DNA from: Candidatus Aenigmatarchaeota archaeon
Lineage (GTDB): Archaea; Aenigmatarchaeota; Aenigmatarchaeia; CG10238-14; SCSR01
Reading direction: 5' to 3'
Assembly: GCA_038998625.1 (NCBI GenBank)
Contig: JAWADS010000018.1
Span: 1 to 6,461, forward strand
Length of the DNA stretch: 6,461 bases
Made by a program: the position numbers and the translations under genes. A model generated the notes under the pieces. The model was not told where the DNA came from, searched no databases, and was given only the letters and a program-made list of their open reading frames with translations. The stretch's first letter is position 1; every line of letters begins with the position of its first letter. This document shows, piece by piece, positions 2,144 to 5,686 of this stretch.

Positions 2144-4477
2144 ATGCTGTTCGAACCTAAGTTAACTGATAAAAAATGGGATATAAAAAATGAAAAAAAT
2201 ATTTTTCGCCTATGGCAAGAAAAAAAGGTATTTCGATTTAATATGAATACAAAAGCAGAAATATTCAGCATTGATACACCACCACCTTATCCCTCTGGAA
2301 GACCTTGGCACATTGGAGCTGCAGCCCACTATTCTCAAATAGATATGATAGCAAGAACTGCAAGAATGTTAGGGTTTGAAACTTATTTCCCTATAGGTAT
2401 AGATAGAAATGGCATACCTGTGGAAAGGTATACGGAAAAATTATATGGAATAAAACTTCAAGATACCCCAAGGGAAAAGTTTATTGAGCTTTGTAAAACT
2501 TCTTTAGATGATTTAGAAGCAGAGATGATTCAAATAATGAAGAACATGGGCTTATCAGGGGATTTTGATAATTATTATAGAACCGATTCAATAGAATATA
2601 GAACCTTAACTCAATCCACTTTTATAGAGCTCTGGAAAAAAGGTTTAATTTACGAGGCCACTAGACCCAATAATTTTTGTTATGATTGTGGTACAACAAT
2701 AGCAGATGCGGATGTGGTATATAAAGATTTGCCAACTCAATTAGTTTACATTAAATTTAAAATTAAAGGAAGTGAAGAGAGCATTGTAATTGCCACCACT
2801 CGACCAGAGCTTTTATGCTCTTGCCAAGCAGTAATAGCAAATCCTAGGGATGAAAGATATAAAAAATTCTTCAACAAGAAAGCAATAATTCCAATTTACC
2901 AACGAGAAGTTCCCATTATTCCTCATAGCTCTGCAGACCCCAATTTTGGAAGCGGTTTGGCAATGATTTGTAGCTATGGAGATTTAACAGACGTCAGACT
3001 TTTTAGAGAGCTAAAGTTAGATGAAATAATCGCTATAAATACACAAGGGAGACTCACAGAAGTTGCAGGAAAATATGCTGGATTAAAAGTTGAGGATGCT
3101 AGAAAAGCAATAATTGAAGATTTAGAAAAAGAGAAGTTAGTTGTAAAAAAAGAAAATATAGTGCATCACACCCCAGTTTGCGAAAGGAGTAATGTGCCTA
3201 TAGAAATTATTCCAATGAAAGAATTTTATCTGGACCAACTTAACTTCATACCAATTTTAAAAAAGATTCAAAAAAAAATAAAATTCCATCCAGAGAAGCA
3301 TAGGCAAAGGTTAATAGATTGGATGAATTCTTTAACCATAGATTGGCCTATCTCAAGAAGAAGATATTATGGCACTGAAATTCCCATATGGTATTGTGAA
3401 AATTGTAATGAGCCGCATTTACCAAAATCAGGAAGATATTATCAGCCTTGGAGGCAAAAGGCTCCATTTAAAAAATGCAAAAAATGTGGGAACAAAACTT
3501 TTATTGGTGAAACTCGAACTTTTGATACATGGTTCGATTCAAGCATTTCCCCCCTTTTTATTTCAAAATTTATGAAAGATAAAAGATTTTTCACAAAATT
3601 CTTTCCAACTTCTTTAAGACCACAGGGAAAAGACATAGTTAGAACTTGGCTTTATTACACATTACTAAGATGCTATCAGTTAACCAAAAAAATTCCTTGG
3701 GAACATGCTTGGATAATGGGTTATGGTGTGGATGAAAAAGGAGAAAAGATGAGCAAGAGCAAAGGAAATGTAATAGATCCTTTTCCGATTATAGAAAAAT
3801 ATGGCGCCGATGCCTTTAGATTTTGGTCTGCCCAAGAAGCAAGTTTAGGAGAAGATTTTCGATGCTCCGAGGAAAGAATAAAAAATTCAGGAAAATTTTT
3901 AACTAAATTATGGAACTTGGCAAGATTTATTTCTATGTTTCCTCAACCAAAAAAAGCAAAATTATTACCTAGCGACAAATGGATTTTAGCTGAATTAAAT
4001 AAAACTATAGCAGAAGCTCTGAAAGGATATGAAAATTTTAATTTTTTCATTCCTGCCACTAAAATGAGAGAATTCACGTGGAATGTTTTCGCAGATCATT
4101 ATATCGAGATGATTAAACCAAGAGCCTATGGTGATAGATTTAATAAAGCTGAACAACAAGCTGCATGGTTTACTCTACATACTTGTTTAAAAAATATTTT
4201 GGTTATATTGGCACCGATAATTCCTTTTATAACAGAATATATATGGCAAGCTCTTTACAGCAAAAAAAGCCTTCATTTGCAAAAGTTTCCAACAAAAATA
4301 AAAAGATCCAAAAATTTTGAAAGGCTAACCCCAAAAATTATTGAATTTAATTCAAAAGTTTGGAGCTTAAAGAAAAAAATGAGATTAACATTGAAAGATT
4401 CTATAGAAGCAAAAATACCTAAAGAATTAAAAATATTTGAAAAGGATTTGAGGGCTATGCATAACATTAAGCCTTAA
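2144..4477 (+). CDS. valS: Valine--tRNA ligase, archaeal type
   Basis: Class Ia motifs FSIDTPPPYPSG-x2-WHIGA (HIGH variant), editing domain ATTRPELL, DWPISRRRYYG, FDTWFDSS, RPQGKDIVRTW and KMSKSKGN; CxxC pairs; short C-terminus lacking the bacterial coiled coil; 777 aa. Confidence 0.96.
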   Translation: MLFEPKLTDKKWDIKNEKNIFRLWQEKKVFRFNMNTKAEIFSIDTPPPYPSGRPWHIGAAAHYSQIDMIARTARMLGFETYFPIGIDRNGIPVERYTEKLYGIKLQDTPREKFIELCKTSLDDLEAEMIQIMKNMGLSGDFDNYYRTDSIEYRTLTQSTFIELWKKGLIYEATRPNNFCYDCGTTIADADVVYKDLPTQLVYIKFKIKGSEESIVIATTRPELLCSCQAVIANPRDERYKKFFNKKAIIPIYQREVPIIPHSSADPNFGSGLAMICSYGDLTDVRLFRELKLDEIIAINTQGRLTEVAGKYAGLKVEDARKAIIEDLEKEKLVVKKENIVHHTPVCERSNVPIEIIPMKEFYLDQLNFIPILKKIQKKIKFHPEKHRQRLIDWMNSLTIDWPISRRRYYGTEIPIWYCENCNEPHLPKSGRYYQPWRQKAPFKKCKKCGNKTFIGETRTFDTWFDSSISPLFISKFMKDKRFFTKFFPTSLRPQGKDIVRTWLYYTLLRCYQLTKKIPWEHAWIMGYGVDEKGEKMSKSKGNVIDPFPIIEKYGADAFRFWSAQEASLGEDFRCSEERIKNSGKFLTKLWNLARFISMFPQPKKAKLLPSDKWILAELNKTIAEALKGYENFNFFIPATKMREFTWNVFADHYIEMIKPRAYGDRFNKAEQQAAWFTLHTCLKNILVILAPIIPFITEYIWQALYSKKSLHLQKFPTKIKRSKNFERLTPKIIEFNSKVWSLKKKMRLTLKDSIEAKIPKELKIFEKDLRAMHNIKP

Positions 4478-4478
4478 T

Positions 4479-4493
4479 CGGAAAATTTATTAA
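4479..4493 (+). promoter_or_regulatory. BRE/TATA promoter for the aRF1 transcript
   Basis: CGGAAAA-TTTATTAA directly after the valS stop predicts a start near 4516, just before ATG 4521. A second TTTATTAA lies at 4497-4504. Confidence 0.55.
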
Positions 4494-4520
4494 GGTTTTA
4501 TTAACTAAAATATAATCTCA

Positions 4521-4589
4521 ATGCGCAAAGATGAGAAGGATGTTGAATGTAGAGCAACTAAAAAGGAAAAAATTTTGATTTTTAGCTAG
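4521..4589 (+). other. Upstream mini-ORF in the aRF1 leader, MRKDEKDVECRATKKEKILIFS* (22 aa, TAG); an overlapping second uORF at 4531-4578 reads MRRMLNVEQLKRKKF* (TGA)
   Basis: These are the first ATGs downstream of the predicted promoter, and both are out of frame with aRF1. Translation is inferred, not shown. Confidence 0.4.
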
Positions 4590-4597
4590 GGGGATCT

Positions 4598-5686
4598 ATA
4601 TTTAGCGAAAAGGAACTTCTACAATTAAGAAAATTGTTGAAAGAATTGGAAAAAATTAAAGGTAGGCACACAGAGCTAGTCTCTGTTTACATCCCTAGCG
4701 GAGCAAATTTAATTGATGTAATAAATCAACTTCAAGAAGAGAAGGGCACTGCTAGCAATATTAAATCTAAAAACACTAGAAAAAATGTTCTCTCTGCTTT
4801 GGAAAAAATAATTCAGCATTTAAAAACCTTTAGACAAACTCCCCCTAATGGTTTGGTTGTTTTTTGCGGAAATGTTTCACCAGTAGAAGGAAAAGAAGAT
4901 ATAAAACTTTGGAGCATAGAACCTCCGGAAAGAATGAATGTAAAAATTTATTGGTGCGACCAAGTGTTTGTTCTCGAGCCTTTGCGAGATTTATTTAGAG
5001 AAAGGGATGTGTATGGTTTGGTGGTATTAGATGCTAGGGAAGCTAACATAGGTTTATTGAAAGGTAAAAGAATTATTTCGCTTAAACACTTGGAATCGAC
5101 TGTTCCTTCAAAAAGCGTGAAGGGTGGTATGTCACAAATGAGGTTTGATAGGTTAAGAGATGATGCAATAAATGAATTTTTAACTAAGGTTGGCGAGGTA
5201 TCTAATCAAAACTTTCTCAATCAGAGAGATCTGAAAGGTATATTAGTAGGCGGCCCAGGTCCAATTAAGGATCGTTTTGCTAAAGAAGATTACTTAAATT
5301 ATCAGCTTAAGAAAAAAATTTTGGCAGTTAAAGATACTGGCTACACAGGAGAAGCAGGTTTGGAAGAATTGGTAAAAAGGAGTGAAGACATAATAAAAGA
5401 AACTGCTCTAGCTAAAGAAAGGGAATTACTTTCTAAATTTTTCAAAGAAATAAAAGAAGAGGGAAATGTTGTTTATGGTAAAGAAAAGGTTATGCAAGTG
5501 TTAGAAACTGGTGTGGCTGAAATATTGCTAATATCAGAAGAATTTGAAGGGGATTTGGAAGAAATCATAACTAAAGCCGAAAATTATGGAGCAAGAACTG
5601 AAATTATTTCTACAGATACTCAAGAGGGGAGACAGTTTTTGAAACTAGGGGGAATAGCAGCTTTTCTAAGACACAAATTAAGTTAA
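4598..5686 (+). CDS. prf1: Peptide chain release factor aRF1 (eRF1 family), GGMSQ variant; true start uncertain (ATA 4598, TTG 4634 or a recoded entry)
   Basis: KGRHTELVSVYIP, TASNIKS, YWCDQVF (YxCxxxF), GGPG, GLEELV and C-terminal LGGIAAFLR. The frame is open back to TAG 4583-4585, and SEKELLQLRKLLKEL upstream of the called TTG resembles the usual aRF1 first helix. SD-like AGGGGGATC lies at 4588-4596. Confidence 0.93.
   Translation: MFSEKELLQLRKLLKELEKIKGRHTELVSVYIPSGANLIDVINQLQEEKGTASNIKSKNTRKNVLSALEKIIQHLKTFRQTPPNGLVVFCGNVSPVEGKEDIKLWSIEPPERMNVKIYWCDQVFVLEPLRDLFRERDVYGLVVLDAREANIGLLKGKRIISLKHLESTVPSKSVKGGMSQMRFDRLRDDAINEFLTKVGEVSNQNFLNQRDLKGILVGGPGPIKDRFAKEDYLNYQLKKKILAVKDTGYTGEAGLEELVKRSEDIIKETALAKERELLSKFFKEIKEEGNVVYGKEKVMQVLETGVAEILLISEEFEGDLEEIITKAENYGARTEIISTDTQEGRQFLKLGGIAAFLRHKLS

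Follow-up and report, generated by a model that had tools for sequence, protein, structure and literature searches.

The window analysed here, 6,461 nucleotides (nt) long, is the entire 6.5-kb contig JAWADS010000018.1 in the metagenome-assembled genome (MAG) of a Candidatus Aenigmatarchaeota archaeon, and our subject is the 5′ end of its gene for aRF1, the archaeal class-I release factor, at which a Shine–Dalgarno (SD)-like element is followed by an ATT codon and a stop codon. The genome comprises 469 kb in 19 contigs, is 92% complete and has a G+C content of 32%. The record titles of close relatives place them in Candidatus Aenigmatarchaeota, a DPANN phylum, and the public sequencing runs that contain the window's DNA are hot-spring metagenomes. 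Besides aRF1, the window carries a thyX-like fragment, a transfer RNA (tRNA), a phosphoesterase, valS, ribosomal protein S8e and an Sm-like protein. An alternative genetic code was considered and rejected, as valS and the other window genes are open under translation table 11 with no internal TGA or TAG.

The identity of the aRF1 gene is clear from a full-length match to TIGR03676 (437.1 bits against a cut-off of 234.7) and from its similarity to a solved aRF1 structure (PDB 4af1, E 1.4e-70). The gene is present in a single copy in the genome and is intact apart from its 5′ end. Solved aRF1 and eRF1 structures align from residue 5 of the protein begun at position 4604, within helix α1. NIKS and YxCxxxF are the stop-recognition motifs of class-I release factors, and both are present in the translation, as TASNIKS and YWCDQVF. 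aRF1 is omnipotent, recognizing all three stop codons. Both motif names are given in passages of PMC3521657. Some Aenigmatarchaeota aRF1 proteins carry the NIKS variants QNVKSR or QNVKDK (loci L013, L015, L006, L019 and L021–L025); the TASNIKS of the window is canonical.

Upstream of the conserved N-domain, the aRF1 frame is closed by TAA at 4559 and again by TAG at 4583–4585, after which it reads LGGSIFSEKELLQLRKLLKELEKIKGRHTEL, translated as L G G S I F S E K E L L Q L R K L L K E L. No ATG or GTG lies in frame before the N-domain, and the first canonical start is TTG 4634. The sequence AGGGGGATC-TAT-ATT-TAG-C occupies 4588–4606, and a +1 step from ATT 4600 leads to TTT AGC GAA AAG, which is the aRF1 frame. 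Stops at 4576, 4583, 4587 and 4603 close all three frames. A first-pass annotation made from the letters alone had described the closed frame with no ATG or GTG, the four stops and short out-of-frame upstream open reading frames (uORFs), the cassette with its +1 slip into the aRF1 frame, and a TAA stop at the end of every complete gene in the window (5 of 5); all of these statements proved accurate. The features of the aRF1 5′ end are as follows.

4583–4585, forward strand: TAG closing the aRF1 frame, 5 codons before TTT 4601.
4588–4596, forward strand: SD-like AGGGGGATC, in the register of the GGTGR of relatives, with its end 5 nt before ATT.
4600–4602, forward strand: ATT, the proposed near-cognate start and P-site codon of the shift, open reading frame 1 (ORF1) then being this single codon; present in 55 of 55 cassettes.
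4601–4603, forward strand: TTT, the codon that would be occupied after a +1 shift and the first of the aRF1 frame.
4603–4606, forward strand: TAG, stop of the proposed ORF1, with the following C; a poor termination context.
4604–5686, forward strand: aRF1 coding sequence, in the +1 frame; it opens with AGC 4604 and closes with TAA 5684–5686, and is supported by TIGR03676 and the PDB match.
4634–4636, forward strand: TTG, the first canonical in-frame start, rejected because no SD precedes it and a start here would cut helix α1.

The site is not a product of misassembly. Logan contigs from four runs of two studies, possibly the source samples, cover 4380–4900 with no differences and no gaps. A genome-wide scan found aRF1 to be the only long open reading frame of the genome with an SD-ATT-stop 5′ end and no in-frame start, and ATT or TTT starts after SDs were not enriched genome-wide. 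No RNA run containing the locus was found among the public runs listed for this stretch. Nor did RNAalifold, applied to 35 cassettes from position −25 to +65, find any consensus pair, and the single-sequence z-scores averaged 0.08.

We then compared the aRF1 5′ end across relatives. Forty-one same-order genomes were searched, and one (G009), which holds only a C-terminal fragment, was excluded, leaving 40 relatives with a visible N terminus. Their aRF1 loci were combined with the 80 best matches in a species-level genome collection, anchored on the conserved GRHTE motif and reduced, by removal of duplicates, to 111 distinct loci. Among the 40 relatives, 17 have the cassette, 22 start with ATG and one starts with TTG; in the first set fetched, the cassette was present in 13 of 30 relatives' loci. 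Across the distinct loci, ATT-stop lies at the same position and in the same frame in 35 of 111, whereas it occurs by chance at the site in only one (L079) of the 68 loci that have an in-frame ATG, so that its presence exceeds what chance would give.

In these loci the cassette has a constant plan: a G-rich SD-like element, 5 nt, ATT, a stop codon and usually C, with the aRF1 frame running from a TTT that overlaps ATT and the stop. The SD-like element is GGTGR in most of the 35 loci and AGGGA or GGGGA in ten, the window included. A logo of these 35 loci shows no variation at ATT, T, A and R; G stands at −9 in 34 of them and at −7 in 32, and both the 5-nt spacer and the sequence upstream of the SD vary freely. 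ATT was retained in 55 of 55 cassettes checked with upstream DNA, namely these 35 and 20 further loci. All 20 of the latter, which were picked for matching the pattern and are not an unbiased sample, have an SD, 5 nt, ATT and TAR, with the aRF1 frame closed 2–10 codons upstream and no ATG. The stops of the 35 are TAA in 21, TAG in 13 and TGA in one.

The position of the cassette corresponds to that of the normal start. In most loci TTT lies 20 codons before GRHTE, which is where ATG stands in ATG-type relatives, and these relatives have the same SD 4–6 nt before their ATG. The aRF1 frame is closed two codons before TTT by the TGA of GGTGA in many loci, and the codon directly before TTT is TAA in L032, L033 and L113, which excludes an in-frame upstream start there. 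Downstream of the site, 11 close pairs compared over the first 18–19 codons differ by 61 synonymous and 41 non-synonymous codon changes, and the window differs from a same-genus relative over 19 codons by 6 synonymous and 3 non-synonymous changes. Ahead of the SD, a stretch of 29 nt is for the most part unalignable in close pairs. The pattern of substitution downstream of the site is that of coding sequence, with constraint from codon 2 onwards.

The cassette is widespread in the phylum. A pattern scan of 371 Aenigmatarchaeota genomes used a loose pattern that a reversed control also matched often, and its raw tally of 137 of 371 was set aside in favour of a count restricted to matches recognizable as aRF1 5′ ends (20 further matches were not listed). 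Counted in this way, at least 56 of the 371 genomes carry the cassette: 54 recognized by eye from pattern matches, together with G019 and G023, which cannot match the scan pattern and are known from loci L012 and L017. By family, the genomes counted in this way are 18 of 23 in f4, 27 of 70 in f1, 9 of 19 in f5 and the one genome of f7, together with G263 of another order. The cassette was not found in loci whose record titles name other phyla. The one apparent exception is L035, from a MAG with a gammaproteobacterial title, and its aRF1 falls among those of Aenigmatarchaeota. Genera differ in its use, with 10 of 11 in genus g6, 0 of 6 in g24, and three cassettes and one ATG within g5. On a quick N-domain tree, which spans 122 columns and is poorly resolved, the trait needs seven changes, of which well-supported branches force only one.

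The cassette stop and its context differ from those of ordinary gene ends. The open reading frames of at least 200 codons in this genome (n = 270) end in TAA in 193 cases, TGA in 56 and TAG in 21, and what follows is A or T in 216 of the 270 and C, the rarest base in this position, in 22. After the cassette stop, C stands in 43 of 55, and TAG is the stop in 13 of 35 cassettes compared with 21 of the 270 long reading frames. The same preference for C can be seen through the second codon of the aRF1 frame, which in cassettes is AAC in twelve cases and AAT in a single one, against a share of only 34% for AAC among the Asn codons in the remainder of these genes (binomial p 2e-5, overstated as kin are not independent). 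As C is the base least often found after natural stops, the cassette stop looks tuned to be slow.

The region upstream of the cassette is less constant. The following features lie there.

2144–4477, forward strand: valS, valine-tRNA ligase, the upstream neighbour of aRF1 (NCBIfam NF009687, 938 bits; synteny in relatives).
4521–4589, forward strand: uORF of 22 codons, from ATG 4521 to TAG 4587–4589, with no counterpart in relatives.
4531–4578, forward strand: uORF of 15 codons in the frame of ATT 4600, with an internal ATG at 4540 and ending at TGA 4576–4578, with no counterpart in relatives.

Between valS and the SD of aRF1, positions 4478–4587 form an AT-rich spacer of about 110 nt that has TATA-like words and contains both of these non-conserved uORFs. 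In several relatives the valS stop abuts the aRF1 SD, and a same-genus relative that lacks the spacer has the end of valS 12 nt before ATT. The first-pass annotation had included the uORFs and the four-stop cluster in its reading, but these and the spacer are peculiar to this genome, valS of the same-genus relative and of others ending just before the SD. Its prfB-like SD and ATT TAG C cassette, by comparison, is kept: alignment of upstream regions across cassette-type relatives retains the SD, the ATT-stop and the lack of an in-frame ATG, and loses the uORFs.

Comparative evidence strongly supports the core of that annotation, namely a +1 slip at a stop cassette that would sense termination. 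In the mechanism we propose, the SD-like element (AGGGGGAUC here, GGUGR in most relatives) would set the near-cognate AUU 4600 in the P site with initiator tRNA, leaving the E site empty and a stop codon, UAG in the window, in the A site. The stop, with C as the next base, stands in a weak context. When aRF1 is plentiful, this one-codon start-stop reading frame would be terminated and aRF1 would not be made. When aRF1 is scarce, the paused ribosome would shift +1 from AUU to UUU, keeping the central U–A35 pair, and read AGC 4604 next. The shifted ribosome would then produce full-length aRF1 (Met-Ser-Glu-Lys-Glu...), of the same length as in ATG-type relatives. The net effect would be negative feedback as in bacterial prfB, compressed to a single-codon ORF1, through which the cell would sense its own supply of the factor.

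Several considerations led to this proposal. AUU initiation is probably the simplest reading of an SD at initiation distance with a stop as the next codon, and by codon–anticodon rules AUU would be the sole AUN codon to keep the central U–A35 pair after a +1 shift onto the U of the stop. Feedback is proposed because the only gene of the genome with a stop-dependent entry encodes the reader of stop codons. We give a probability of roughly 0.55 to the reading that aRF1 synthesis, here and in about half of the order's genomes, requires a +1 frameshift at the conserved AUU-stop site. The odds appear about even that the fuller scheme is right, in which an initiator-tRNA +1 frameshift on a one-codon start-stop reading frame (SD, AUU, stop, C) autoregulates cellular aRF1 and has been repeatedly gained or lost against ATG in the at least 56 genomes that have it.

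A number of points weigh against this scheme. Initiator tRNA would re-pair with UUU by one base pair only. For a gene that is essential and single-copy, having to combine a near-cognate start with a frameshift seems an inefficient arrangement. The case for feedback is one of analogy with prfB, kin are not independent, and the well-supported branches of the tree require one origin only. The SD stands at a normal initiation distance, 5 nt from ATT, in a genome in which GGTGR-led starts are few and the commonest distance from GGTGR to ATG is 4 nt (19 cases, against 5 at 5 nt); it is therefore, unlike that of prfB, not placed to push the ribosome forward. Finally, a GTG inside GGTGR lies in frame with ATT, three codons upstream, in 22 of the 35 loci, and an ATG 7–11 codons upstream is in the ATT frame in 4 of 35, so that a short ORF1 is possible in many relatives, with which the 5-nt spacing is also compatible.

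These last observations favour a variant, with the same frameshift and feedback, in which ORF1 has 3–10 codons and an elongator tRNA-Ile slips on AUU, beginning at the GTG inside GGTGR, at the upstream ATG in some relatives or at ATC 4594 in the window. The strict 5-nt spacing would keep the GTG in frame, and tRNA-Ile(GAU) would re-pair with UUU better than initiator tRNA. Yet the GTG is missing from 13 of 35 loci including the window, where no canonical start follows TGA 4576 in the ATT frame, and a same-genus relative (L026) has a TGA between GTG and ATT. Of the ten AGGGA- and GGGGA-type loci, which lack the GTG altogether, eight hold the 5-nt spacing; where the GTG is present, it has no SD ahead of it; and in ATG-type relatives the same GGTGR serves as the SD. 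We regard this variant as improbable on balance, if the most serious of the alternatives to a one-codon ORF1. The structural evidence is equally compatible with a constitutive +1 frameshift, by which the cassette would set a low, fixed level of aRF1 without sensing its activity. The A-site stop, however, is invariant (55 of 55) and in a weak context (C at +4 in 43 of 55), and the arrangement occurs only in the genome's release-factor gene; a merely weak start would need no stop codon, and we consider a fixed level unlikely.

Explanations that dispense with the frameshift fare worse. Translation could begin in the aRF1 frame itself at the non-canonical ATA 4598, a listed start of table 11 at which the first-pass annotation had suggested reinitiation, or at TTT 4601, which lies 6 nt from the SD and thus inside the 4–6-nt range of ATG-type relatives. 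But ATA precedes TTT in no more than 3 of 35 loci and a stop does so in another 3, the codon being GTA, GCA, GAA, GGA, CTA, AAA or ACA otherwise; TTT has no known use as a start, nor does it show enrichment downstream of SDs in this genome; and any such start leaves the invariant A before TTT and the A-R after it unexplained. We give a non-canonical start in this frame a low probability, and a start at TTG 4634 a distinctly lower one. The latter is the first canonical in-frame start and would yield an N-terminally shorter protein, but it has no SD upstream, the 10 codons before it are homologous to helix α1 and differ from those of a same-genus relative mostly by synonymous changes, and in several relatives, among them L004, L011, L023 and L032, the stretch from the cassette to GRHTE is free of ATG, GTG and TTG.

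The route originally suggested to the cassette began at the uORF of 4531/4540, got past TGA 4576 through readthrough or slippage on the T5 run, and ended in a frameshift at ATT TAG. Although those reading frames do exist, they are missing from cassette-bearing relatives and the spacer that holds them is specific to this genome; two rare events would be needed in series, and the detour is unnecessary with an SD at initiation distance from ATT. We think it very improbable. A sequencing or assembly error, or a pseudogene, is suggested by the MAG origin of the contig and by homopolymer runs nearby, and is scarcely credible given the identical contigs of four runs, the same arrangement in 55 independent assemblies, and a single-copy gene that is otherwise intact. 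Transcriptional slippage was also considered and judged unlikely, the T run being only 3 long.

One further feature of the window was examined. At 1038–1128 on the forward strand, ARAGORN calls a 91-nt tRNA with a four-base anticodon, 'gtaa', and the Rfam tRNA score is 47.9 bits. Read by hand, the same stretch appears to encode a tRNA-Thr(GGU) whose anticodon stem is interrupted in its 3′ strand, a non-canonical position, by a 17-nt intron. A role for a four-base-anticodon tRNA at the site was rejected: the 'gtaa' is an artefact, and GUAA is not complementary to the shift site.

The aRF1 protein departs from its canonical counterparts at the catalytic centre, where the GGQ motif, otherwise universally conserved, is replaced by GGMSQ, with the Gln two residues later.

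5123–5137, forward strand: GGMSQ in place of the catalytic GGQ motif, placed by alignment to structures and relatives.

The motif could be read in 31 cassette-type aRF1 loci, all of which carry either GG[MW]S[QA] or GGM with an intein after it; none is of the GGQ type, whereas GGQS is kept in 39 ATG-type loci of other lineages. More broadly, the catalytic loop of Aenigmatarchaeota relatives is GG[MWFY]SQ (loci L003–L111), and in three loci Gln stands at neither position (GGMSA in L006 and L011, GGWSA in L092). A GGxSQ loop is described for VLRF-1 families in passages of PMC6514570. In many relatives (loci L026, L030–L033, L045, L053, L056 and L085, and those whose aRF1 open frames reach 540–936 amino acids) an intein-like insertion lies inside the catalytic loop (after GGM, beginning with C), the extein resuming at SQ; the window aRF1 has no such insertion. 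A separate difference concerns the C-domain, in which most relatives and the Halobacterium aRF1 (4af1) have about 35–45 extra residues at a point corresponding to about 5540–5560 of the window (residues ~317–320); these are missing from the window aRF1, from those of G007, G011, G014 and G039 and from the Aeropyrum aRF1 (3agk).

Feedback on a release factor by frameshifting at a stop codon is a textbook case in bacteria, and the cassette resembles that of prfB in several respects. The gene encodes a class-I release factor, and the stop at the proposed shift site (TAG here; TAA, TAG or TGA in relatives) is one that its own product reads. A P-site NUU is followed by U, so that a +1 shift would give UUU (ATT T in 55 of 55 cassettes, compared with CTT T in prfB); C usually follows the stop, a G-rich SD-like element lies upstream, and the element is patchy among relatives. 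The prfB shift-site consensus, in the passages of PMC3711429 that give it, is YTT_TRA_C with an upstream SD. There are also differences: aRF1 is not homologous to RF2; the cassette stop is TAA or TAG, not TGA, in 34 of 35 loci; and the SD would act at initiation distance, 5 nt after GGUGR, rather than at the 3 nt of prfB. ORF1 is probably a single near-cognate AUU rather than the approximately 25 codons opened by AUG in prfB, canonical starts being absent in 10 of 35 loci and limited in the rest to the GTG of the SD or, in 4 of 35, an ATG, and the slipping tRNA would be the initiator rather than the tRNA-Leu that reads CUU.

The start itself has a parallel in infC, the bacterial gene for IF3, in which a near-cognate AUU start is used in feedback on the factor's own activity. 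As proposed for aRF1, infC is thus a translation-factor gene with an AUU start in a feedback loop; unlike the cassette, it has neither a stop codon nor a frameshift, and it senses the fidelity of initiation rather than termination. A one-codon reading frame also has precedents: PMC13338717 describes start-stop elements of eukaryotic 5′ untranslated regions, in which a start codon is directly followed by a stop. These elements share with the cassette a ribosome that holds a stop in its A site and has undergone no elongation, but they are upstream repressors of main reading frames that have their own AUG, whereas here the element would be the sole entry to the main reading frame, by way of a frameshift.

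Within the aRF1/eRF1 family, the only recoding reported in the literature we searched is that of a class-I release-factor gene of Mimivirus and Megavirus (R726/mg280), whose frameshift and readthrough are read as autoregulation in passages of PMC3521657; the same passages, published in 2012, state that such recoding is absent from archaeal and eukaryotic release-factor homologues. Both cases concern a gene of this family whose expression needs, or in aRF1 would need, recoding of a stop codon. The viral gene has two internal events, whereas aRF1 here is cellular and would have one event, at the start of the gene. We found no description of an archaeal aRF1 frameshift in the full-text literature searched, whose coverage leaves out most subscription journals.

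A conserved archaeal counterpart of the bacterial loop, if true, would be a case of convergent evolution, in which the same control logic arose on an unrelated protein, and would amount to an archaeal reinvention of the logic of prfB in the most compact form possible. It would offer a natural system for the study of frameshifting by a ribosome that holds only initiator tRNA, and it would allow gene calls to be corrected, as aRF1 genes of this kind are bound to be annotated as truncated or broken. Since the cassette occurs together with a changed catalytic loop (GGxSQ in place of GGQ), one may ask whether translation termination is unusual in this phylum.

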